A stretch of DNA of 64,000 bases, from positions 125,906 through 189,905 of the forward strand of contig JBMNLZ010000002.1 in assembly GCA_050953065.1 (NCBI GenBank). The letters run 5' to 3'. This document shows, one piece after another, positions 1,364-23,268 of this stretch (the first letter of the stretch is position 1; every line of letters begins with the position of its first letter). The notes under the pieces are model-generated. The model did not search any database, had not been told where the DNA came from, and saw nothing but the letters and a program-made list of their open reading frames with translations. Source of the DNA: Bacilli bacterium. GTDB taxonomy: Bacteria > Bacillota_I > Bacilli_A > ML615J-28 > CAG-698. The translations under genes were made by a program, and so were the position numbers.

Positions 1364-2263
1364 ATGAACAGTAATTTATATTTAGAAGGCAAAGAATTAA
1401 GAAGATTTAAAACTAAGAGAATGATTAATCAAATATTGATTTATTTCTTCTTAGCTTTAATTGCATTGTTTGTTTTGATTCCTTTTTACTGGATGTTAGC
1501 AACTGCAGTTAAAAGTGATGCTGAGTTGGTTAAAGGCGTAACGTTTTTCCCTCAGGATTGGGCTTTTGAAAACTTTGGGAAAGTGTTTATAAGGGCACCA
1601 TATTTTGGAAGGTATTTTTTAAATACAATTATTGTTGGAACTTTAACTACAATTGGAACTTTAATAACTACAATTTTAGCAGCGTTTGCTTTTGCAAGAC
1701 TTAATTTCAAAGGTAAGAATGTTTTGTTTACAATTTTGCTTGCAACAATGATGATTCCAGGAGAGGTATTTGTTATTTCTAACTTTGTTACTATTGGAAG
1801 TTTTGGTAAAATTCCTTTCCTTAGTTGGGCAGGAAAAGAAACATTTGGAGCCTTAGTATTACCGTTTATTACAAGTGTCTTTTATATTTTCTTTTTAAGA
1901 CAAACATTTAAACAAATTCCAAATGAATTATATTTAGCAGCAAAAGTTGATGGAACTAGTGATTTTAAGTATTTATGGAAAGTTATGATTCCAATGGCGA
2001 AAGCTACTATTACAACGATTTTTATTTTAAGTATGATGGGGGCATGGAATGCTTATATTTGGCCAACTTTAGTTGCTAATAGTGAAAAGATGCGTTTAGT
2101 AACAAATGGACTAATGCAATCATTTACAGATGAATCTGGACAAACTCCAGACAACTTAAGAATGGCAGCAACAACTTTAGTTACCATCCCATTATTAATT
2201 GTTTTCATATGTTTAAGAAAGTATATTATGCGAGGAGTTTCTCGTAGTGGTATAAAAGGTTAA
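1364..2263 (+). CDS. ABC transporter permease (CUT1 sugar family, UgpE/MalG-like)
   Basis: Multi-TM ORF with a permease signature region; operon context. Confidence 0.8.
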   Translation: MNSNLYLEGKELRRFKTKRMINQILIYFFLALIALFVLIPFYWMLATAVKSDAELVKGVTFFPQDWAFENFGKVFIRAPYFGRYFLNTIIVGTLTTIGTLITTILAAFAFARLNFKGKNVLFTILLATMMIPGEVFVISNFVTIGSFGKIPFLSWAGKETFGALVLPFITSVFYIFFLRQTFKQIPNELYLAAKVDGTSDFKYLWKVMIPMAKATITTIFILSMMGAWNAYIWPTLVANSEKMRLVTNGLMQSFTDESGQTPDNLRMAATTLVTIPLLIVFICLRKYIMRGVSRSGIKG

Positions 2264-2278
2264 TGAAAGGAGAAAAAT

Positions 2279-3787
2279 ATGAAAAAACTTATTAGTGTAT
2301 TATTTATTTTAGGAATGGCTTTTATTTTAACTGCCTGTGGTGAAAAGCGAAGCAGTAAAGTTAATTTAGTTAGCATGGAAGAATTTGAAGCTCAAGAAAA
2401 TATTCAAATTACATTTAGAGTATCATTTGGTCAAGCAATTACACCATATGTTCAAGGCTTAATTGATAGTTTTAATGAAAAGTATGATAACGTTACTTGT
2501 ACAATGGAAGTAGTTGGTGGATATGATAATTTGTTAACTCAAACAAAATTAGATGTTCAAGGTAATACTGCACCAACTCTTGTAATTGGTTATCCTGACC
2601 ATATCGCAGCTTATCTATTATCAGATGGAGTTGTTCCGTTAGATGATTTTATGAATAGCGCTGAAGTTGGGTTTAGTGAAGCTGATATGGCTGATTTTAT
2701 TCCTGCGTATTTAGCAGAAAATAATAAATACGATAAAGGGGGAACTTATTATAGTTTGCCATTTAACAAATCAACAGAAGTATTAGTTTATAATAAAGCT
2801 TTCTTTGAACATTTTGAATTAGAGGCTCCTACTACTTGGCAAGAAATGGAAACTCTTACAAAAGATATTGTTGAGATTGTTAAATCAGGAGATGCTGATA
2901 ATACTTGGTCACCAGGACTTACAATGTCAACAATGAATGACTTTGTTCCATTAAACTATGACTCAGATTCTAACTTCTTTATTACAACTGCTCATCAATG
3001 GGGTGGTGTTTATACATCAAGTGCTTTAAAACTTGATGGAGGAGTTAATCTAGAAAAGGGTAAAATGGATTTTGCTGATAGCACACTTAATGCTAAAACT
3101 GTTGAAGGTTTAACATTTATGCAAAATATGGCAAGTTATACTTATGAATCAAAAGCTGCACCATTAGTAACAACACCTAAATATTGGGAAGAAGCTTATG
3201 GAAGCAATCCATTTAAACAAGGTAAATGTGTGATGACAATTGGTTCTACTGCAGGGGTTTCTCATAACCAAGGTGGAGTGGCTACTAATTTAGGCTATGC
3301 ACCAATTCCATATGATACGAATAGTGCTATTAAAACAGTTATTCAACAAGGAACAAATATTGCGATTCTTTCACAAGCAGATGATTATCAAAGAATGGCT
3401 GCATGGTTATTTGTTAAACATTGTTTAAGTTTAGAAGGAACTATTGAATTCGCAGTTGGAACTGGGTATTTCCCTGTAAGAAATTCTGCTTATAATTATA
3501 ATCCTGAAATTGCTGAAGGAGAAAATGAAATAAACGATAAAGCAAAAGTTTATTATGATTTTCTAACTACTCCAACAATTGAACAAATTGCTAAATCTAA
3601 AGTAGCTCAAGTTATTCAATCATATAAGGAATTAGGGTATGTTTATTATGTAGACCCTGCATGGAGTGGATCAGCTGATGTTAGAGTTGAAGTTGGTGTT
3701 GCAATGGAACAAATAGTAATTGATAAACTTGCAATTCAAACTGCTTTAACAGATGCTAAAAATAGAGTGCCTACACTAGATTTTTAG
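2279..3787 (+). CDS. Extracellular solute-binding lipoprotein of the ABC importer
   Basis: Signal peptide with lipobox (LTAC); about 500 aa; SD GAAAGGAG upstream; sits after the permeases. Confidence 0.7.
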   Translation: MKKLISVLFILGMAFILTACGEKRSSKVNLVSMEEFEAQENIQITFRVSFGQAITPYVQGLIDSFNEKYDNVTCTMEVVGGYDNLLTQTKLDVQGNTAPTLVIGYPDHIAAYLLSDGVVPLDDFMNSAEVGFSEADMADFIPAYLAENNKYDKGGTYYSLPFNKSTEVLVYNKAFFEHFELEAPTTWQEMETLTKDIVEIVKSGDADNTWSPGLTMSTMNDFVPLNYDSDSNFFITTAHQWGGVYTSSALKLDGGVNLEKGKMDFADSTLNAKTVEGLTFMQNMASYTYESKAAPLVTTPKYWEEAYGSNPFKQGKCVMTIGSTAGVSHNQGGVATNLGYAPIPYDTNSAIKTVIQQGTNIAILSQADDYQRMAAWLFVKHCLSLEGTIEFAVGTGYFPVRNSAYNYNPEIAEGENEINDKAKVYYDFLTTPTIEQIAKSKVAQVIQSYKELGYVYYVDPAWSGSADVRVEVGVAMEQIVIDKLAIQTALTDAKNRVPTLDF

Positions 3788-3797
3788 GTAATAAAAA

Positions 3798-5057
3798 ATG
3801 TTAAAAAAATATTTAAAAATTTTATTAATAATACTTCTTTTGGTTTTGTCTGCTTGTAAAAAAACAGAAGAACCTATAGAAGATAAACAAGACTTACAAC
3901 TAGATACTAGATATACTGATGCGTTAGAATTAACTACTAGTTTTGAAGGTAAAGAGTTTATTACTCATGGAATAGGCAAAGTATCTTTAGGGCTATGTGT
4001 TGATGGAGATACAATAACTGTAAGAAGTGGAGCATCTAATATTACTATTAGATTTTTAGGAATTAATACACCTGAATCAACAGGAAAAGTTGAACCTTGG
4101 GGGAAACCTGCTAGTGCTTTTGTCAAAGATAAACTTACCAATGCTGATGCTATTGTTTTAGAAGCAGAAGGCGAAAGGACAGATAACAATGGAAGATATT
4201 TAGCTTGGGTTTGGTATCAACCAAAAGGGCAAGATAAATATAGATTGCTTAACTTAGAAATTGTTGAAGAAGCATATTCGTTTTTTACAATGTCTTCTAC
4301 TAAATATCATGAAACTTTTATCTCAGCTCATTATAAAAATACAAATATTAAGAAAAGACTTTATGGAGAAACTGATCCAAGTTTTTCTACTTCAAAAGAA
4401 GCACTTGATACTACAATTGCATATGTTTTATCAGGTAAAGAAGAATATTTAACTGGAACAGTATTTAATTTAACTGTTCAAGTGTTAAGAACTGTTGGAG
4501 ATGATTTCTTTGTCAGAGACATTCAGGCTACCGATATTGATGGTGAAGTAGTTTATGGTGATATCTTTGTTTTTGGATTTTATGGAGTAAGTTATTATAC
4601 TTATTTACAAATTGGAGATATAGTTAATTTTGAATGTAAATTTGATATTGCTGGAAATTATGGAGACCAAATTACCGATGTTAGGAAACTAAAAATTCTT
4701 CGTAATGAAGAAGTTAATTTAGATATAATTGATTCAAGTGATATTACCAATTTAAGTGCATATAAAGGTAGAGTAATTACAGTTGATAATTTAATTTATA
4801 AAGGTTATTATCAATCTCAAAATGATAAAGCTGCTAACCCCGAACAATATACTTTAAAATTTGAATCAAATACTGGTAAAAAATTTGATGTAAGAATAGG
4901 GAACCGTCTTATCTCAAGATATGATGTAGATAGCTTAGTAGTAGATGAGGTATATGCTGTAACTGGCGGAGTAAGCTATTATGAGTTTGCTAATGATTCA
5001 TATCAATTATTATTAGGTGACAAAAACAAATCAAATGATATTGTTTTGAAAGAATAA
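3798..5057 (+). CDS. Lipoprotein with staphylococcal-nuclease (thermonuclease/SNase) domain plus a C-terminal OB-fold-like module
   Basis: Lipobox LSAC; SNase-like motifs DGDTITV, RFLGINTPE, GRYLAWVWY match the remembered SNase core DGDTVKL / RLLLVDTPE / GRGLAYIY. Confidence 0.75.
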   Translation: MLKKYLKILLIILLLVLSACKKTEEPIEDKQDLQLDTRYTDALELTTSFEGKEFITHGIGKVSLGLCVDGDTITVRSGASNITIRFLGINTPESTGKVEPWGKPASAFVKDKLTNADAIVLEAEGERTDNNGRYLAWVWYQPKGQDKYRLLNLEIVEEAYSFFTMSSTKYHETFISAHYKNTNIKKRLYGETDPSFSTSKEALDTTIAYVLSGKEEYLTGTVFNLTVQVLRTVGDDFFVRDIQATDIDGEVVYGDIFVFGFYGVSYYTYLQIGDIVNFECKFDIAGNYGDQITDVRKLKILRNEEVNLDIIDSSDITNLSAYKGRVITVDNLIYKGYYQSQNDKAANPEQYTLKFESNTGKKFDVRIGNRLISRYDVDSLVVDEVYAVTGGVSYYEFANDSYQLLLGDKNKSNDIVLKE

Positions 5058-5078
5058 AAAAGGAGGAAAATTTAAAAA

Positions 5079-7973
5079 ATGAATCTTAAAAAAATTATTA
5101 TTAGTTTTGTAGTATTGTTTTTAGGAGTAGTTTTGGTAGCATGTGATAAAGAGGTAGAAAACCTTGCTGAAACATATATCCAAAACATCAATCTTCTAAA
5201 TCCAGCAGCAATTGTTGATGATATTCAATTGCAAAAGAAAATCAGTGGCCAAGGAAGTGTTACTTGGGTATCTGATAATGAAGCGGTAGTTAAAATTGAG
5301 GAGTATGTTGATGAAACTTTAGCCGCAAGTTTCTTTAAAGGTAGTGTTACTAGACCAGCAGTTGGCGAAGAAGATGTTGTCGTAACATTAACAGTAACTT
5401 ATACATTAGATGGACAAACAGCAACTAGAGAAATTAAAATTAAAGTTTTAGCAGAACCAGCTGCTTTGTCAATTTCTGAAATTTTGTCAATGAGTGTAGG
5501 AGATGAAGTTTTAGCAGAAGGTGTTGTTGCAGCACTTACTCCTAAGGGATTCTTACTTAGTGATGAGACAGAAATGATTTATGTTTATCAAAATGCAACA
5601 CCTACAGTTTTAGTAGGTGATACAGTTAAGGTTAGTGGTAAAATTGCAGTATATCATAGCGCTAAACAAATCTCTAATCCAACTATTACTAAATTAAATA
5701 CAGAAGCAGGAACTTATACTTATCCTGAGGCTGTAAAGGTTACAGCAGATTCTTTAGCAAAGCTTTATAATAAAGACAGTAAAAACTTTAATAATCTTTA
5801 TGAAATTAAAGGCATTATTGAATTAAAAGGAACTTATAATGATATCTATATTAAGGATTTTGAAAATCCTGATATCGCAATCTATCTTCAATATAGTTAT
5901 ATTAACGCAGAAAATGCTACTTTATTTAAAGGTAAAAATGGCGCTGTAGTAAGTTTTAAAGCTTATTCAGTATGTCTTGATAATGATTATTATGATGATG
6001 TAGTAGCTTTGATGTATTTAGATCAAACTTTTGTTGAATACACTGATACTGTTGCTTACTTAACAGTTAGTGGAAGAAACATGATTGATATTGTTAATCC
6101 TCGTCAATATGAAGCAACTCTTTATCCTGCAGTAGAAGATACTACAGTTATTTGGTCAACAAGCGATGAAGAAATTGCAACAGTTGATGAAACTGGTAGA
6201 GTAACAGCACTTGCAGTAGGTGAGGTTGATATCATTGCTACAGTTGGTAATATTACTAATAAAAAAACAATTACAGTTGTAGAAGAGTTAGCAGATCCAA
6301 CTACAGTTAATATTGCAGGAGATGCAGAGATTGTTGAGTTTGGTATTGCAAACTATACATCAAGTGTAGAACCAGAAAATGCAGACCCTTCTGTAACATG
6401 GAGTGTTGATGATGAGACTATTGCAACAATAGATCAAACTGGTAAATTAATTGCTAATAAAGTTGGTAAAGTTACAGTTAAAGCAACTGCAACAGGAACT
6501 GAAGTGTTTGGAACTAAAGAAGTTAATGTTGTTGCGATGGAAATATCTGATATTTCAACTTTACTTCCAACATTAAGTGCAACTCCACAAACAGTATCTC
6601 TTAAGGGTGAAATAGTAGGTATTGCTGCTAAAGGTTGGTATTTAGCTGATAGTACTGGATATGTATACATACACCTAAATAAAACTCCAACTGGAGTTAC
6701 AGTAGGTGATACTGTAAGAATTGCAGTTAAGAAAGCTCAAATTTATTTGAATACTAATAACTATGTATATCAAATGGATGCAAGAGGCGATGGTGAAATA
6801 TATGTATATCCTATTGAAGAAGACTTTACTGAAATTCCAACAGTTGACAAAGCAATAGATACTTTTGAATATGATAATAAAACAGATGTAACAAAAGACT
6901 ATGTAGAAGCTATGGGAACTATGGAAGTATATGGCAAAAAGTGGGTTAGCGTTACTGGTAAATTAATTAAATTTGGAAGTTATAATAACCTATATTTAGA
7001 ATCAGCTACTAATAAAGTTATGATTGACTATAATACTGATGCTGAAGCTCTAGCAAGACTTGGATATTTAATAAATGAAACTATTACTTTAAAAGGTTTA
7101 GTATATGGATTTAATAAGACTAATGGTTGGAGTATTACATTCTTTAATAGAGATGGTGACTTAAAACAAGGTGACACTGTTTTAGAAGTTAAACCAACTA
7201 TTATGAAAGTTGATGAAATTAAAAATGAATTAAGAAATTACTATCCAAATCAAGTTGAAGAAAATATAACTCTTGATTTTGCATCAACTTTATATCCTGA
7301 TGCAGCGTTTACTTATTCATCAAATAAACCTGAATCATTAAGTAATGAAGGTATAGTTGTAAGAGGAACTGAAGATGTAGAAGTTACTTTAACTATGTCA
7401 GTTTATTTAGATGGAAATACAGCAGGTGATGCTGATGGAACAATTGACATTGTTATTAATGTAATAGCAGAAGGTGGTGTACCTCTTTCAACAATCTATT
7501 CAACTGGATTTGAAGCAGATGAAGGATTTGTAGCAACTTCAAGTTATCAAAATACTGATCCTAGATACCAAGGAGCAGAAGGTGCACAATGGGCTATCAT
7601 TATGGGTGCTGTTACTACTACAGGTAAAATTACAGATTTACAAAGCTTACAAATGAGATCTTATACTTCGTTACCAGATACATATGGTTCAGCTATTACG
7701 AATTTTAATATCGCTAATGCTCATAAAGTGACATTTAAAGCTAATGCTTATAATAACCCAGGAACTGCATTAAAGGTCTATTACTCAACTGATGGTGGGA
7801 CAACTTGGCTTGGCGAAGAAACATTTACAATTGTTAAAGCAGTAGGCGAATTCACATACAACTTACCAGAAGGCGGAGTTAATAATGTAAGATTTAAGCT
7901 TGAACATGCCCTTAAAGGTGTAGATAATAGATTAACAATTGATGAATTTACAGTAATTGGAATCTCATCATAA
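5079..7973 (+). CDS. Large surface lipoprotein with Ig-like (Big_2-type) domains and repeated OB-fold-like modules
   Basis: Lipobox LVAC; SD AAGGAGG; Big_2-like segments (TVIWSTSDEEIATVDETGRVTALAVGEVDI); repeated GxxVxVxG...GFxLxD...IYVY modules. Confidence 0.6.
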   Translation: MNLKKIIISFVVLFLGVVLVACDKEVENLAETYIQNINLLNPAAIVDDIQLQKKISGQGSVTWVSDNEAVVKIEEYVDETLAASFFKGSVTRPAVGEEDVVVTLTVTYTLDGQTATREIKIKVLAEPAALSISEILSMSVGDEVLAEGVVAALTPKGFLLSDETEMIYVYQNATPTVLVGDTVKVSGKIAVYHSAKQISNPTITKLNTEAGTYTYPEAVKVTADSLAKLYNKDSKNFNNLYEIKGIIELKGTYNDIYIKDFENPDIAIYLQYSYINAENATLFKGKNGAVVSFKAYSVCLDNDYYDDVVALMYLDQTFVEYTDTVAYLTVSGRNMIDIVNPRQYEATLYPAVEDTTVIWSTSDEEIATVDETGRVTALAVGEVDIIATVGNITNKKTITVVEELADPTTVNIAGDAEIVEFGIANYTSSVEPENADPSVTWSVDDETIATIDQTGKLIANKVGKVTVKATATGTEVFGTKEVNVVAMEISDISTLLPTLSATPQTVSLKGEIVGIAAKGWYLADSTGYVYIHLNKTPTGVTVGDTVRIAVKKAQIYLNTNNYVYQMDARGDGEIYVYPIEEDFTEIPTVDKAIDTFEYDNKTDVTKDYVEAMGTMEVYGKKWVSVTGKLIKFGSYNNLYLESATNKVMIDYNTDAEALARLGYLINETITLKGLVYGFNKTNGWSITFFNRDGDLKQGDTVLEVKPTIMKVDEIKNELRNYYPNQVEENITLDFASTLYPDAAFTYSSNKPESLSNEGIVVRGTEDVEVTLTMSVYLDGNTAGDADGTIDIVINVIAEGGVPLSTIYSTGFEADEGFVATSSYQNTDPRYQGAEGAQWAIIMGAVTTTGKITDLQSLQMRSYTSLPDTYGSAITNFNIANAHKVTFKANAYNNPGTALKVYYSTDGGTTWLGEETFTIVKAVGEFTYNLPEGGVNNVRFKLEHALKGVDNRLTIDEFTVIGISS

Positions 7974-7992
7974 TAAAGAAATTTAATTTTAA

Positions 7993-8034
7993 AAATACTT
8001 CTTTTAAAGAAATTTAAAAGAAGTATTTTTTATT
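7993..8034 (+). terminator. Rho-independent terminator after the lipoprotein gene
   Basis: Inverted repeat AAATACTTCTTTTAAA / TTTAAAAGAAGTATTT followed by a T-run. Confidence 0.6.
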
Positions 8035-8127
8035 TTATTAGATTAACTATAAACAAAATATTTATTTACATTAAAAAAAATGTTATAATAAAGTTAATCT
8101 TTTTATTATTATTTTAGGAGGCTTATT

Positions 8128-9252
8128 ATGGAATACCGCAAATGGAAAAAAATCCCAGTTGAAACATCTTTATTAGGATTTGGTTCAATGAGATTAAAAA
8201 CAGTTAATGATAAAATAGATGAAGAATTAGCTTTAAAATTAGTTGACTATGCATATAATAACGGAGTCAATTATTTTGATATGGCGATGCCATATTTAGA
8301 TGGTCAAAATGAAAGTTTTATGGGACGTGCTTTAAAACGATATAAAAGAGATACATTCTATATAGCTACAAAACTTTCGCTTTGGATGTTTGAGACTAAA
8401 GAAGAAATTGAACAAGTAATTGATAGGCAACTTGAAAACCTTCAAACTAGTTATATTGATTGTTATTTATTGCATGCTTTAAATAAAGAAAAGTTTGAAA
8501 AAATAAAAAGATTAGGTGTAATGGATATTGTTAGAAAATGGAAAAAAGAAGGAAAAATAAAATACATTGGTTTTTCTTTCCATGATGAATACGATATTTA
8601 TAAAGAAATTTTAAACTTTTATGATTGGGATTTTTGTCAGCTTCAACTTAACTATATGGACCAAGATACCCAACAAGGGATAAAAGGCTATTATGATGCA
8701 TTAAACAAGGGAATTCCTGTTATTGTAATGGAGCCAGTTAAAGGTGGAGATTTAGCTAAATTTAATGATAAAGTCTCTTCTATTTTTTATGATTATAATA
8801 AACAAGCAAGTCTTTCTAGTTGGGCTTTTAGATGGGTTGGAAGCTTAGTTGGCGTAAAGTTAATTTTAAGCGGGATGAATACATTAGAACAATTAAAAGA
8901 CAATTTAAAAACATTCGATAACTTTAAACCTCTTAATGAGGAAGAACAAGTATTAGTTTCTAAGGTGAAAGAGGAATTAAAGAAAATTGTTGAAGTGGGC
9001 TGTACAAGATGTGAGTATTGCTTGCCATGTCCTTATGGGGTTAATATTCCAAGAAACTTTAAAATTTTTAATAATTATGCTATGTATAAAAATGAAAATT
9101 CAGCTTTATTTAATTTTAAAGAATTAAAGAAAGAAAAAGCTGATGCATCAATTTGTGTTGCTTGTGGAGAATGCATTAGTAAATGTCCTCAAAAAATTAA
9201 TATTCCAGAAGAGTTATCTAGAATGCTTACTGAAATGAGGTTTTTAAAATGA
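8128..9252 (+). CDS. Aldo/keto reductase family oxidoreductase with C-terminal 2x[4Fe-4S] ferredoxin-like domain
   Basis: AKR-like N-terminal region; two Cys clusters (CTRCEYCLPCP and CVACGECISKCP); SD AGGAGG. Confidence 0.7.
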   Translation: MEYRKWKKIPVETSLLGFGSMRLKTVNDKIDEELALKLVDYAYNNGVNYFDMAMPYLDGQNESFMGRALKRYKRDTFYIATKLSLWMFETKEEIEQVIDRQLENLQTSYIDCYLLHALNKEKFEKIKRLGVMDIVRKWKKEGKIKYIGFSFHDEYDIYKEILNFYDWDFCQLQLNYMDQDTQQGIKGYYDALNKGIPVIVMEPVKGGDLAKFNDKVSSIFYDYNKQASLSSWAFRWVGSLVGVKLILSGMNTLEQLKDNLKTFDNFKPLNEEEQVLVSKVKEELKKIVEVGCTRCEYCLPCPYGVNIPRNFKIFNNYAMYKNENSALFNFKELKKEKADASICVACGECISKCPQKINIPEELSRMLTEMRFLK

Positions 9253-13727: not shown

Positions 13728-15263
<1,536 letters not shown>

Positions 15264-15463
15264 AAGGAGAAAGGTTAAACCTTTAACCAAAAATTATTTT
15301 AAATTTCTTTGATTTTTTACTCCATCATGTTCTATTTAGTTTTGAGAGACTTTGTCTTTCTAAAATATAGTTTTATTAATAGATCTTTGAAAATTGAATA
15401 GTACTTGTCGCAAGAAAGTAAGAACACTTTTTAAAAATTTTAGTGTTTAAATAAAAAGAATAA

Positions 15464-18327
<2,864 letters not shown>

Positions 18328-18364
18328 TAAAGCGATGAAGTACTATTCAATTTTGAAAGAGAAG

Positions 18365-18475
18365 TATGGTGACAACAGCAAAGTGGAAACACCTGTTCCC
18401 ATCTCGAACACAGAAGTTAAGCACTTTAACGCCGATGATAGTTGGGCTTCCCCGCAAAAGTAGGAAGTTGCCTTA
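18365..18475 (+). rRNA. rrf: 5S ribosomal RNA (ends approximate)
   Basis: Conserved CCTGTTCCCATCTCGAACACAGAAGTTAAGC and GCCGATGATAGT blocks; terminal helix pairing. Confidence 0.9.
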
Positions 18476-18572
18476 CTTCCTTTCTATTAATAAAAAAATA
18501 TATACATTTTAATATTTTTGTGTTAATATCTAATGTAGATAAAAGAGTTACAGATAATTTCACGCAAAAAAT

Positions 18573-18648
18573 GGAGGATTAGCTCAGCTGGGAGAGCATC
18601 TGCCTTACAAGCAGAGGGTCGGCGGTTCGATCCCGTCATCCTCCACCA
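18573..18648 (+). tRNA. tRNA-Val (anticodon TAC)
   Basis: Cloverleaf read by eye; anticodon loop CTTACAA; 3' CCA encoded. Confidence 0.85.
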
Positions 18649-18652
18649 TTGT

Positions 18653-18728
<76 letters not shown>

Positions 18729-18734
18729 TTCTTT

Positions 18735-18810
18735 GTCTCCGTAGCTCAGAAGGTAGAGCAACTGACTTTTAATCAGTGGGTCGGACGTTCGAATCGTCTC
18801 GGAGACACCA
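18735..18810 (+). tRNA. tRNA-Lys (anticodon TTT)
   Basis: Acceptor GTCTCCG/CGGAGAC; anticodon loop CTTTTAA; CCA encoded. Confidence 0.85.
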
Positions 18811-18833
18811 TTTCTCTACCAGATGAAAAATGC

Positions 18834-18920
18834 GCTTGAGTGGCGGAATAGGTAGACGCGCAGGACTTAAAATCCTGTGGTAGCAATACCGTGTGGGTTC
18901 AATTCCCACCTTAAGCACCA
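18834..18920 (+). tRNA. tRNA-Leu (anticodon TAA), long variable arm
   Basis: Anticodon loop CTTAAAA; class II variable arm; CCA encoded. Confidence 0.8.
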
Positions 18921-18936
18921 AAAGTTTTTAAAAGAT

Positions 18937-19012
18937 GGGTCCTTAGCTCAGCTGGGAGAGCGCCTGTTTTGCAAGCAGGAGGCCGACGGTTCGATCCCGT
19001 TAGGATCCACCA
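18937..19012 (+). tRNA. tRNA-Ala (anticodon TGC)
   Basis: Acceptor with G3:U70; anticodon loop TTTGCAA; CCA encoded. Confidence 0.85.
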
Positions 19013-19033
19013 TTTTTTTAAAGATTAGTAACT

Positions 19034-19110
19034 GGCGGTGTAGCTTAGCTGGCTAGAGCGTACGGTTCATACCCGTGAGGTCGGGGGTTCAAATCCCTCC
19101 ACCGCTACCA
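19034..19110 (+). tRNA. tRNA-Met, elongator (anticodon CAT)
   Basis: Close to the remembered Bacillus elongator tRNA-Met (GGCGGTGTAGC...GGTTCATACCCGT). Confidence 0.7.
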
Positions 19111-19115
19111 TAAGC

Positions 19116-19192
19116 GGACCCGTAGCTCAGTTGGTTAGAGCTACCGGCTCATAACCGGTCGGTCGCAGGTTCGAGTCCTGCTGGGTCCACCA
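19116..19192 (+). tRNA. tRNA-Ile2 (anticodon CAT, lysidine-type); Met not excluded
   Basis: CAT anticodon; body resembles the remembered Bacillus tRNA-Ile(LAU) (GGACC...GGCTCATAACCG...GGTTCGAGTCC). Confidence 0.6.
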
Positions 19193-19206
19193 GTTTTAAA
19201 ATGTAC

Positions 19207-19297
19207 GGAGGAATACCCAAGTCCGGCTGAAGGGATCGGTCTTGAAAACCGACAGGCGTGCGAGCGCGCGGGGGTTCGAATCCCTCTTCCTCCGCCA
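19207..19297 (+). tRNA. tRNA-Ser (anticodon TGA)
   Basis: GGAGGAATACCCAAGTCCGGCTGAAGG start; anticodon loop CTTGAAA; long variable arm. Confidence 0.85.
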
Positions 19298-19339
19298 TTT
19301 TATTAAAAATAAATTAAGTTAAATATATAAGCATAACAT

Positions 19340-19415
<76 letters not shown>

Positions 19416-19419
19416 AAAT

Positions 19420-19495
19420 GGTCCCATGGTGTAGTGGTTAACATGCCAGTCTGTCACACTGGAGATCGCGGGTTCAAGTCCCGTTGGGACCGCCA
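19420..19495 (+). tRNA. tRNA-Asp (anticodon GTC)
   Basis: Anticodon loop CTGTCAC; acceptor GGTCCCA/TGGGACC. Confidence 0.85.
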
Positions 19496-19501
19496 TTTTT
19501 T

Positions 19502-19577
19502 GGCTCAGTAGCTCAGTTGGTAGAGCGAAGGACTGAAAATCCTTGTGTCGGTGGTTCAATTCCGCCCTGAGCCACCA
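19502..19577 (+). tRNA. tRNA-Phe (anticodon GAA)
   Basis: Anticodon loop CTGAAAA; acceptor GGCTCAG/CTGAGCC; CCA encoded. Confidence 0.85.
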
Positions 19578-19591
19578 TGTGTTGGAAAAGT

Positions 19592-19627
19592 AAAGGTTTG
19601 ATAATAAAATATCAAACCTTTTTTATA
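19592..19627 (+). terminator. Rho-independent terminator ending the rRNA-tRNA operon
   Basis: Stem AAGGTTTGAT / ATCAAACCTT followed by a T-run. Confidence 0.75.
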
Positions 19628-19641
19628 AAAAAATTATTAAA

Positions 19642-19669
19642 ATAAATGTGGCTTTTAATGCACATTTAT
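19642..19669 (+). promoter_or_regulatory. Perfect 9-bp inverted repeat (ATAAATGTG-N10-CACATTTAT) beside a -10-like element; candidate operator for the HTH-methylase
   Basis: Palindrome read directly; TGATATTAT follows at 19669-19677; about 20 nt upstream of the HTH-methyltransferase start. Confidence 0.45.
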
Positions 19670-19695
19670 GATATTATCTATTTGGGTGATACAAT

Positions 19696-20736
19696 ATGAT
19701 TTTAGATATATTTGGAAATAGAGTTAGAGATTTAAGAAATTCAAAAATGCTTTCTCAAGTAGAGTTTTCTCATTTATCAGGAATAGATAGAACTCAAATT
19801 TCAAAAATAGAACAAGGAAAAATAAATGTGACGCTAGTAACGATTGAAAAAATAAGTGAAGCACTAAATGTTGAAATTAAAGATTTGATGAATATTTCAA
19901 ATGAAAAAAAGATGCGCCCCTTTGTAAAATGGGCAGGAGGTAAAACTCAAATTCTTAGTAAAATTTGTGAGTTAATGCCAAATGAATTTGAAACTTATTT
20001 TGAGCCCTTCGTAGGTGGTGGAGCGTTGTTTTTATATCTTGCTCCTGAAAAAGCATATATAAATGATTCTAATAGTGAATTGATGGGTGCTTACGAATGT
20101 CTAAAAGATCTTAATAAATATACAAAACTATTAAAAATCCTAGAGGAGCATGAAGTAAATCATAGCGAAGAATATTATTATGAAATTCGCGCTTTAGATA
20201 GAAATGATGACTTTGAAAAAATGCCAGTCTATGAAAGAGCTGCTAGAATGATTTATTTAAATAAAGCTTGTTATAATGGACTTTATAGAGTTAATTCTAA
20301 AGGCTATTTTAATGTTCCATCAGGAAGAAAAACTAATGTTAATACATACGACAGAGACAATATGTTATTATTACGAAATTACTTTTTAAATAACGACATC
20401 AATATTTTAAATACTGATTTTGAGGAAGCAGTAAAATCTGCTAAAGAAGGTGATTTTGTATACTTTGATCCTCCATATGATACGTTAGATGAAAAAGATA
20501 CTTTTACTTCTTATTCAAAAGATTCTTTTGGAAAAGAAGCCCAAACAAGGCTTGCTAGAGTTTATCAAGAATTATCTGATAAGGGAGTCAAAGTAATGTT
20601 GAGCAATCACAATACACGATATATAAATGAGTTATACAAAGAATTTAATAAGACGATTATTAAGGCCAAAAGAATGATTAATTCTAACGCAGATGGTCGT
20701 GGAGAAGTAGAAGAAATAATAATCACTAATTATTAG
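19696..20736 (+). CDS. dpnM: N6-adenine DNA methyltransferase, Dam/DpnM family (D12 class), with N-terminal XRE-type HTH domain
   Basis: N-terminal HTH (LSQVEFSHLSGIDRTQISKIEQG); then KWAGGK, FEPFVGGGALF, NGLYRVNSKG, DFVYFDPPY, MLSN motifs matching remembered DpnM. Confidence 0.8.
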   Translation: MILDIFGNRVRDLRNSKMLSQVEFSHLSGIDRTQISKIEQGKINVTLVTIEKISEALNVEIKDLMNISNEKKMRPFVKWAGGKTQILSKICELMPNEFETYFEPFVGGGALFLYLAPEKAYINDSNSELMGAYECLKDLNKYTKLLKILEEHEVNHSEEYYYEIRALDRNDDFEKMPVYERAARMIYLNKACYNGLYRVNSKGYFNVPSGRKTNVNTYDRDNMLLLRNYFLNNDINILNTDFEEAVKSAKEGDFVYFDPPYDTLDEKDTFTSYSKDSFGKEAQTRLARVYQELSDKGVKVMLSNHNTRYINELYKEFNKTIIKAKRMINSNADGRGEVEEIIITNY

Positions 20737-20746
20737 GAGTTAGTAA

Positions 20747-21568
20747 ATGAACTTAAATAGTTTAGAAAAAGATCTATACATAGATTATCCTGAGTTTAAG
20801 TTATTGCTTGGTGATTCTTTTGAAGTATTAAAAAAATTTGAAGTAAAATCTGTTGATATGGTTTTTGCTGATCCACCATATTTCTTATCTAGTGGCGGGA
20901 TATCTTGTCAAAATGGAAAGCAAGTCTTGGTTAATAAAGGTGATTGGGATATAGCAAAAACAATAGAAGAAAAAATTACATATCACCGTGAATGGATAAG
21001 GCTTTGTAGAAATGTATTAAAAGATGATGGGGCTATCTGGATTTCTGCAACTCTACATAGTGTATATGCAATAGGGGTAGCTTTAGAGATGGAAGGTTTT
21101 TCAATTATAAATAATATTATATGGCAGAAAACCAATCCTGCTCCTAATTTAGGATGTAGATGTTTTACGCACTCAACTGAAACAATTATTTGGGCAAGAA
21201 AACAACTGACTAAAAAAAAGAAAGGTAAACATTGTTTTGATTATCAGTTAATGAAAGAAGTTAATGACGGGAAACAAATGAAAGATGTTTGGGAGTTTAG
21301 TGAAGAAGAACCAATCATTTGGAAAATAAGTACTACGCCAAAAAGAGAGAAAAAAGAAGGAAGGCATCCAACTCAAAAGCCGTTAGAACTTTTAAAAAGA
21401 ATTATTCTTGCTTCTACAAAAGAAAACGATATTGTATTAGACCCTTTTAATGGTAGTGGTACAACTGGAATTGCATGTAAAATCTTGAATAGAAATTATA
21501 TAGGAATTGATAATGACGAAGAGTATTTAAATCTAACAAAGAAAAGATATGAGGTAATAAAAGGATGA
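20747..21568 (+). CDS. dpnA: DNA methyltransferase, N4/N6 family, DpnA-like (second methylase of DpnII-type systems)
   Basis: Motifs FADPPYF, WQKTNPAPN, DGKQMKDVW, HPTQKP, LDPFNGSGTTG resembling remembered DpnA. Confidence 0.75.
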   Translation: MNLNSLEKDLYIDYPEFKLLLGDSFEVLKKFEVKSVDMVFADPPYFLSSGGISCQNGKQVLVNKGDWDIAKTIEEKITYHREWIRLCRNVLKDDGAIWISATLHSVYAIGVALEMEGFSIINNIIWQKTNPAPNLGCRCFTHSTETIIWARKQLTKKKKGKHCFDYQLMKEVNDGKQMKDVWEFSEEEPIIWKISTTPKREKKEGRHPTQKPLELLKRIILASTKENDIVLDPFNGSGTTGIACKILNRNYIGIDNDEEYLNLTKKRYEVIKG

Positions 21569-22410: not shown

Positions 22411-22456
22411 AAGTAAAAACCATTTCTTTAATAATATATATTAAAGAGGTGGTTTT

Positions 22457-23173
22457 TTGTTATATAATGGTGATTGTATAGAAGTAATGAAATCTATTGA
22501 AAGTAAGAGTGTCGATATGATCTTTGCAGATCCGCCCTACTTTCTTTCTAATGATGGTAAAAGTATTTCAAGTGGTAAGATAGTATCTGTTAATAAGGGT
22601 GAATGGGATAAAAGAAAGAATTATGAAAGTGTTGAAGTGTTCACTAAAGAATGGTTAAGTGAATGTTTTAGAATATTAAAAGATAAGTGTAGTATTTGGG
22701 TATCAGGAACACATCACAATATTTTTAATGTTAAAAGAATAATGGATGAAATAGGATTTAAAATAATAAATATAGTGATATGGAAAAAGATAGATCCGCC
22801 GCCTTTAATATATAAAAACAAATTAAGATTTTCGTATGAGTTTATTATTTGGGCTGATAAGGGTAAGGGGCATATTTTTAATTATAATGATATGTATAAA
22901 ATTGCTAATGAGGAGTTAGAAGATGTTTGGATTTTACCGTCTGTTCATATGAACGAAAAGAAATATGGCTATCATCCTACTCAAAAACCAGAATGTCTAT
23001 TAGAAAGAATTATAAAAGCATCTACGAATAAAGGTCAGTTAGTATTAGATCCTTTTATGGGAAGTGGAACAACTTGTGTGGTTGCTAAAAGATTAGGTAG
23101 AAAATTTATAGGAATAGAAAAAGAAAAAATGTTTTATTTAAATTCATGCAAAAGGATTGAAAATCAACTATAA
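22457..23173 (+). CDS. Second N4/N6-family DNA methyltransferase (DpnA paralog); probable TTG start
   Basis: N-terminus LYNGDCIEVMK; FADPPYF, HPTQKP, LDPFMGSGTT motifs; SD AAAGAGGTGG upstream. Confidence 0.7.
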   Translation: MLYNGDCIEVMKSIESKSVDMIFADPPYFLSNDGKSISSGKIVSVNKGEWDKRKNYESVEVFTKEWLSECFRILKDKCSIWVSGTHHNIFNVKRIMDEIGFKIINIVIWKKIDPPPLIYKNKLRFSYEFIIWADKGKGHIFNYNDMYKIANEELEDVWILPSVHMNEKKYGYHPTQKPECLLERIIKASTNKGQLVLDPFMGSGTTCVVAKRLGRKFIGIEKEKMFYLNSCKRIENQL

Positions 23174-23268
23174 TGGAAAAACAATATAAACCCACTTTTA
23201 TTTTTATTTAAAGTAGGTTTATTTTTTTTAATTAATGCTTAAACTATTAAGTTAAATATGGTAAAATT

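Follow-up and report, generated by a model that had tools for sequence, protein, structure and literature searches.

Downstream of a complete rRNA operon and eleven tRNA genes, the window, by which we mean the whole stretch of 64,000 nucleotides of Bacilli DNA that was analyzed, contains four restriction-modification (R-M) genes. They are all encoded on the forward strand, lie 10 nt apart or overlap, and are placed behind one promoter (Table 1). A methylase with an N-terminal helix-turn-helix (HTH) domain is followed by a DpnA-like methylase, by an endonuclease of the DpnII family with a start codon that overlaps the stop of dpnA (ATGA), and by a second DpnA-like methylase. The Pfam assignments together with the gene order dpnM (D12), dpnA (N6_N4) and dpnB (DpnII endonuclease) identify a DpnII-type cassette, which by family membership would be specific for GATC. 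This tetranucleotide is rarer in the window than expected (94 occurrences versus about 178 predicted from base composition alone), a scarcity that fits long residence of a GATC-specific R-M system. The base composition of the cassette shows no contrast with the neighboring DNA.

Table 1. Coordinates of the cassette, its promoter region and its upstream neighbors in the window (strand "." denotes no strand assignment).
Feature	Position	Strand	Evidence or remark
rRNA operon, complete	13728-18476		upstream of cassette
Eleven tRNA genes	18573-19577		upstream of cassette
Intrinsic terminator, 12-bp stem AAAGGTTTGATA/TATCAAACCTTT plus T run	19592-19627	+	-13 kcal/mol, z -5.2
28-bp palindrome ATAAATGTG-N10-CACATTTAT	19642-19669	.	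sequence and pattern search
Left arm, ATAAATGTG	19642-19650
Ten nt between the arms, GCTTTTAATG	19651-19660
Right arm, CACATTTAT	19661-19669
18-bp operator core TGTGGCTTTTAATGCACA, predicted fused-HTH dimer site	19647-19664	.	cross-locus conservation and matrix
Extended -10 TGATATTAT (TG 19669-70 and TATTAT 19672-77)	19669-19677	+	sequence; TG kept in 27 of 30 homologous loci
Shine-Dalgarno GGGTGA	19684-19689	+	sequence; -10-to-SD distance 6-7 nt in most relatives
HTH::Dam gene (DpnM-like, D12 class N6-adenine methylase), 346 aa	19696-20736	+	ORF and Pfam
C-protein-like XRE HTH domain, aa 1-65, five helices	19696-19890	+	HTH_3 1.7e-13; structure matches; AF2
DpnA-like N6_N4 methylase, 273 aa, begins 10 nt past dpnM	20747-21568	+	ORF and Pfam
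DpnII-family restriction endonuclease, 281 aa	21565-22410	+	PF04556, 1e-106
19-bp AT-rich hairpin plus T run	22415-22457	+	-19.2 kcal/mol, z -6.6
Second DpnA-like N6_N4 methylase, 238 aa, TTG start	22457-23173	+	44% identity to the first
Terminator-like hairpin plus T run	23186-23229	+	-8.9 kcal/mol, z -3.4

The intrinsic terminator upstream of the cassette ends the rRNA/tRNA operon and shields the cassette promoter, which it precedes by only ~40 nt, from read-through. Between the endonuclease and the fourth gene, a second hairpin carries the Shine-Dalgarno (SD) sequence of the fourth gene in its 3' arm (AGAGGTGG), with the TTG start codon directly after it, and could act as an attenuator or a translational lock. 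The hairpin behind the fourth gene is the probable end of the operon. The same fourth methylase gene is found in the closest relative of the window locus (L161) and in L172. L161 also shares the cassette and the GDPD/Flg_new gene downstream of it, but there rmuC lies upstream in place of the rRNA/tRNA genes, and the upstream junction has therefore been rearranged.

The first gene joins an HTH_3 domain (aa 10-63) and a MethyltransfD12 domain (aa 79-327) in one open reading frame, an architecture common to all 120 best database homologues. The catalytic domain belongs to the D12 class of N6-adenine methylases (PF02086, TIGR00571 dam). Residues 1-72 have their nearest solved structures among restriction-modification controller (C) proteins, namely C.AhdI (1.6e-11), C.BclI (8e-9) and, more weakly, C.Esp1396I (4e-4). 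An AlphaFold model of the fusion, built on 23 homologues, shows five helices within aa 2-64 (2-16, 21-28, 32-39, 47-57 and 61-64; pLDDT 83-96), an unstructured linker of 18 aa (65-82) and then the methylase fold. This layout of HTH, linker and methylase resembles that of M.SsoII, in which a flexible linker connects the regulatory domain and the enzyme (PMC3978073). We found no further HTH open reading frame in the cassette, in agreement with an earlier note on this DNA that had proposed regulation without a separate controller.

Reading the window sequence upstream of this gene, we found a 28-bp palindrome of two perfect 9-bp arms. The earlier note had described such a palindrome with a 10-nt gap abutting a -10-like element, and this arrangement is indeed present at 19642-19677. 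It lies upstream of the HTH::DpnM start as stated there, but the distance of about 20 nt has to be corrected, as 26 nt separate the end of the palindrome from the ATG at 19696. The search for further copies that had been suggested as a check returned none in the 64-kb window: the full pattern has a single occurrence even when up to three mismatches are allowed (0.13 expected). We counted 28 perfect inverted repeats with arms of 9 bp or more and a gap not exceeding 16 in the window, compared with ~8.9 in first-order Markov simulations, and the 9-bp palindrome alone is within chance expectation and not significant. Its weight thus comes from its position and its conservation at other loci rather than from the repeat itself. 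A second operator box near the central 18 bp was not found by inverted-repeat, motif and matrix scans of the window. A third exact copy of ATAAATGTG is located at 19822-19830 within the HTH coding region, where it encodes I-N-V. We considered this copy as a half-site and rejected it, as its GTG codon varies in relatives (GTT, GTA, GTC) and the match is probably due to chance.

The two symmetric half-sites inside TGTGGCTTTTAATGCACA (TGTGG.. and ..GCACA) lie directly 5' of the TG-extended -10, and the right-hand TAT of the palindrome is part of the TRTG extension. No -35 element is recognizable in the window promoter, and the operator candidate fills that space. An extended -10 alone reportedly drives the unfused Streptococcus pneumoniae DpnII operon, a result attributed to Sabelnikov et al. 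in 1995. Mollicute promoters depend on the motif TRTGNTAWAAT (PMC5282649). In most homologous loci, GGGTGA or GGTGAT follows 6-7 nt after the -10; because this distance is so short, the predicted mRNA begins at the ribosome-binding site. Placing the start 6-7 nt past the -10, we predict that transcription initiates at ~19684, the first G of the SD sequence, leaving a leader of ~12 nt. Given this start, the 18-mer would span from about -37 to -20, with its center near -28.5. In 27 of 30 loci, 5-9 nt separate the end of the 18-mer from the -10 hexamer; in the other three (L009, L011 and L085), the distance is 16-17 nt, about one helical turn more, and the center falls near -38.5. The place of the operator relative to the -10 is a repressor position. 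In the subclade of L011 and L085, the -10 ends 6 nt before the start codon, from which a leaderless mRNA is predicted, and the operator lies 16 nt from the -10, one helical turn farther upstream than elsewhere. Two other arrangements were considered and rejected. An alternative promoter ATGATA-16-TACAAT at 19668-19695 would use 'TGATACAAT', which overlaps the conserved GGGTGAT ribosome-binding site, and its transcription start would follow the ATG. A methylation-controlled promoter is not compatible with the absence of GATC from 19465 to 20106.

We compared 160 loci from genomes and metagenomes, among them 19 with the fused gene and 137 with an unfused DpnM of similar catalytic-domain identity, 133 of which have enough upstream DNA for the test. 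TGTG-N10-CACA, with at most one mismatch and within 120 nt upstream, is present at 18 of 19 fused genes (14 exact) versus 1 of 133 unfused genes (none exact). The background of the motif over the 1.05 Mb of loci is 0.019 per 120 nt, and 0.002 for exact matches. Promoter sites of fused genes account for 14 of the 17 exact matches across all of this DNA. We also found the motif in extra fused loci identified by exact-protein look-up. In a scan of viral contigs with TGTGNATTTTAATNCACA, 56 matches were obtained, three of which lie upstream of HTH::Dam genes, on three viral contigs; nothing was seen that ties the remaining viral matches to HTH::Dam genes. The fused loci span Bacilli, Mollicutes, Erysipelotrichales and some viral contigs.

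A motif-anchored alignment gives TGTG-y-ATTTTAAT-r-CACA as the consensus operator of the fused family; the anchoring overstates how conserved the four outer bases of either arm are, and the contrast between fused and unfused genes is independent of it. In the window operator, the left half-site TGTGGCTT deviates at two positions from the symmetric family consensus TGTGCATT. A weight matrix made from 24 other loci, with the window and its near-twin L161 left out, scores the window site at 20.9 bits; the next-best match in the window reaches 10.9 and the highest-scoring of 20 shuffles 16.9. In unanchored MAFFT alignments of upstream regions from loci with 60-82% protein identity, the sequences are unalignable up to the operator and then form an unbroken block through the -10. 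L161, the closest relative at 82% identity, shares the exact 18-mer although its genomic surroundings and its left flank differ. Since the 18-mer is shared and the left flank is not, the functional unit would be the inner 18 bp; the outer ATAAA/TTTAT arms show weaker conservation. The description of the site as 9-bp arms around a neutral N10 spacer is thus superseded: the conserved unit is the inner 18-mer, and the supposed spacer is part of the conserved site.

The unfused loci differ from the fused ones in their surroundings as well. A DpnII endonuclease gene lies downstream in all 15 fused loci that could be judged versus 58 of 113 unfused loci, and only about half of the unfused dpnM genes have it on the same strand; many unfused DpnM proteins may be orphan Dam methylases. 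The 133 unfused genes, nearly all of which lack the palindrome (the single case has one mismatch), have catalytic domains at most 63% identical to that of the window enzyme. Beside unfused dpnM, a search for a separate C gene gave no adjoining HTH match, save three weak, distant or out-of-frame ones.

The earlier note had assigned the palindrome to the fused HTH as its operator. That the motif tracks the fusion, that its distance to the -10 is fixed, that the HTH is C-protein-like and that the cassette encodes no second HTH protein argue in favor of this assignment. In our judgment the palindrome is very probably an operator at which the HTH-fused methylase represses its own operon; from sequence comparison we infer that the protein binds, how many molecules do so, where transcription starts and in which direction regulation acts.

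Among other explanations, the one that survives best, although we regard it as unlikely, is that the fused HTH binds this site and activates a promoter without a -35, or switches between activation and repression. The missing -35 is consistent with such a role, and so is the homology of the HTH to C proteins, which are activator/repressors (PMC12707154). In L009, L011 and L085, the operator center is near class II activator positions, and an activator role is possible in these three loci. However, the 18-mers of the other 27 loci touch the TG extension, which is the repressor position, and the single operator contrasts with the paired OL and OR sites through which C proteins first activate and then repress. 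The unfused DpnII operon is also said to have an extended -10 that works with neither a -35 nor an activator, which again speaks against activation. The same independence from a -35 or an activator holds for extended -10 promoters in Mollicutes (PMC5282649), and the known methylase-HTH fusions are repressors (PMC3874152).

It is improbable, and more so than activation, that a host global regulator, for example of the CRP/FNR type, recognizes the site independently of the fused HTH. The CRP consensus is TGTGA-N6-TCACA, and the outer AAATGTG...CACATTT of the palindrome resembles its flanks, but the spacing is TGTG-N10-CACA and not N8. In addition, the motif follows the HTH fusion across Bacilli, Mollicutes, Erysipelotrichales and viral contigs, is retained in L161 despite its other genomic context, and has no further site in the 64 kb. 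Slightly less probable still is an RNA or DNA hairpin, acting as a back-up terminator of the tRNA operon or as a 5'-UTR structure, in place of a protein site. The RNA would fold into a 9-bp stem with a 10-nt loop (-12.5 kcal/mol and z = -1.9 for a 69-nt stretch). This stem is weak, AT-rich, without a T run and preceded by a strong terminator 20 nt away; the predicted transcription start is downstream of the palindrome, which would hence be outside the mRNA. The sequence is conserved including the 'loop' ATTTTAAT, with no compensatory changes in relatives, and L161 has the same element without an upstream tRNA operon. On the weak fold and the conservation without covariation, we rejected the hairpin reading. 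The idea that AT-rich intergenic DNA produced this inverted repeat by chance can practically be dismissed: although a 64-kb window should contain about nine perfect ones with arms of 9 bp or more and a short gap, chance explains neither why the site is conserved across loci nor why it accompanies the HTH fusion.

If the methylase represses its own operon, two fusion molecules would bind the 18-mer, by DNA-mediated or HTH-mediated dimerization, and would occlude RNA polymerase. The monomeric state of M.SsoII in solution counts against the dimerization assumed here (PMC3978073). The whole co-directional operon, comprising HTH::dpnM, dpnA, dpnB and probably the fourth methylase gene, would be under negative autoregulation. 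In a naive cell the promoter would be open, and the build-up of methylase would then close the operon, so that endonuclease and methylase levels would be capped without a separate controller gene. Simple autorepression by itself leaves unexplained how the endonuclease lags behind the methylase in a new host, because both are encoded on one transcript. Gene order, translational coupling and titration of the methylase by its substrate sites are candidates for this delay.

Repressor and enzyme being one polypeptide, the operator might furthermore serve as a sensor of methylation demand, a tentative idea to which we give rather low credence. Abundant unmethylated or hemimethylated GATC, as in a new host, during fast replication or on phage DNA, would draw the methylase off the operator and derepress the M-M-R operon. 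On a fully methylated genome, free protein would return to the operator and turn the operon off. If true, this would extend the substrate-dependent repression of M.EcoRII to a Dam-type single-promoter R-M operon, and likewise the anticorrelation of functions proposed for M.SsoII.

We compared the window locus to systems for which regulation has been reported. The EcoRII, MspI, SsoII/Ecl18kI and ScrFI methylases have an HTH at the N-terminus and act as repressors of their own promoters (PMC3874152, PMC12707154). The fusion shares with the SsoII/Ecl18kI, EcoRII, MspI and ScrFIA type an N-terminal XRE HTH of ~70 aa, a flexible linker and a methylase (PMC3874152, PMC12707154, PMC3978073). It further shares an inverted-repeat operator in the methylase's own promoter and, as the expected outcome, autorepression by competition with RNA polymerase. 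At the sequence level, the 18-bp palindrome adjoins the gene's own extended -10 and is conserved at, and specific to, fused loci. The operator sequence differs from those of the SsoII-type systems, and these enzymes are C5-cytosine methylases, whereas the window enzyme is a D12 N6-adenine methylase (Dam/DpnM). In the SsoII type, the R and M promoters are divergent or overlapping, and autorepression of the methylase therefore indirectly raises R. In the window, by contrast, M, M2 and R are co-directional and share one promoter, and R and M should therefore be repressed together.

For Mollicutes, Fisunov et al. 2017 described fusions of C-protein homologues with modification subunits, together with a list of predicted sites (PMC5282649). 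Their C::methylase 'Type II fusion' loci resemble the window locus in that the sites overlap the extended -10 and center on a (G)TG core (PMC5282649); here, too, a C-like HTH is fused to a Type II methylase, and a TG-containing repeat overlaps the extended -10. The site listed for Mycoplasma mobile, TGTATATTTTAACACACA-aatgt-TATAAT (PMC5282649), fits the 18-mer family except for one mismatch, its end lying 5 nt from the TATAAT. Experimental binding (EMSA) in that work concerns only unfused HsdC on the direct repeats (GTGTTAN5)2, for which the TG dinucleotide is essential; HsdC, from Mycoplasma gallisepticum, is inferred to be a repressor (PMC5282649). The fusion sites of that study are from single species and come without a family-wide analysis, whereas the window represents an uncultured Bacilli genome assembled from metagenomic data with a complete DpnII-type cassette.

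Classical C proteins such as C.AhdI, C.BclI, C.PvuII and C.Esp1396I share with the window fusion a homologous five-helix HTH and an element in the promoter of their own gene; leaders that are very short or lacking in relatives (L011 and L085) are a further resemblance. They are, however, free-standing proteins of ~8-11 kDa that are usually co-transcribed directly with R, whereas the HTH of the window is fused to M. Sorokin et al. 2009 describe C proteins as using a 35-bp double operator with GACT/AGTC boxes and a central GTG, activating first and repressing later (PMC2632904). In place of this double operator, the window has a single 18-bp TGTG...CACA palindrome in repressor position, and no GACT/AGTC boxes occur within the conserved 18-mer. 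Neither a free-standing protein nor a 35-bp double C-box was thus found. The text of Sorokin et al. mentions neither fusions nor the TGTG motif (PMC2632904). The S. pneumoniae DpnII cassette (dpnM-dpnA-dpnB) has the same gene order and families, but pneumococcal DpnM lacks the HTH domain and such an operator, and the window cassette has the additional fourth methylase gene. The window locus would work like the SsoII-type systems rather than the classical C systems.

Several related cassettes show further rearrangements. In L174-L176, GmrSD_N and HEPN (RiboL-PSP) proteins are inserted between HTH::dam and dpnA/dpnII (4557-6417), and two more defense genes thus lie behind the same operator-controlled promoter. 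In L166 (Mycoplasmopsis synoviae LS991953.1), the HTH::dam-DpnII genes are found between direct repeats of ~1.7 kb (1957-3645 and 7110-8799), each of which holds the same small open reading frames of 49, 97, 101 and 113 aa. Here, dpnA is missing, with a 700-nt gap, and the right half of the operator is degenerate (CATACT); this cassette may be decaying or mobile. For some cassettes (L172, at 2229-3392, L178, L185 and L230), transport by mobile elements or prophages is suggested by a neighboring gene for a Rep_trans replication initiator or by their location on IMG/VR viral contigs. A MazG-like gene lies between dpnII and an extra methylase in L172.

Methylase-borne control of this sort is already known, regulatory methylases and C::M fusions having been described (PMC12707154, PMC5282649), and established concepts are unchanged by our finding. 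What the comparison adds is a concrete operator consensus, TGTG-y-ATTTTAAT-r-CACA, for a large uncharacterized HTH::Dam family. Operator, extended -10, ribosome-binding site and start codon would together form a complete control module of ~50 bp that moves with the cassette. Methylase-borne autorepression would thereby be extended from C5 enzymes with divergent genes to N6-adenine, co-directional operons of the DpnII type.
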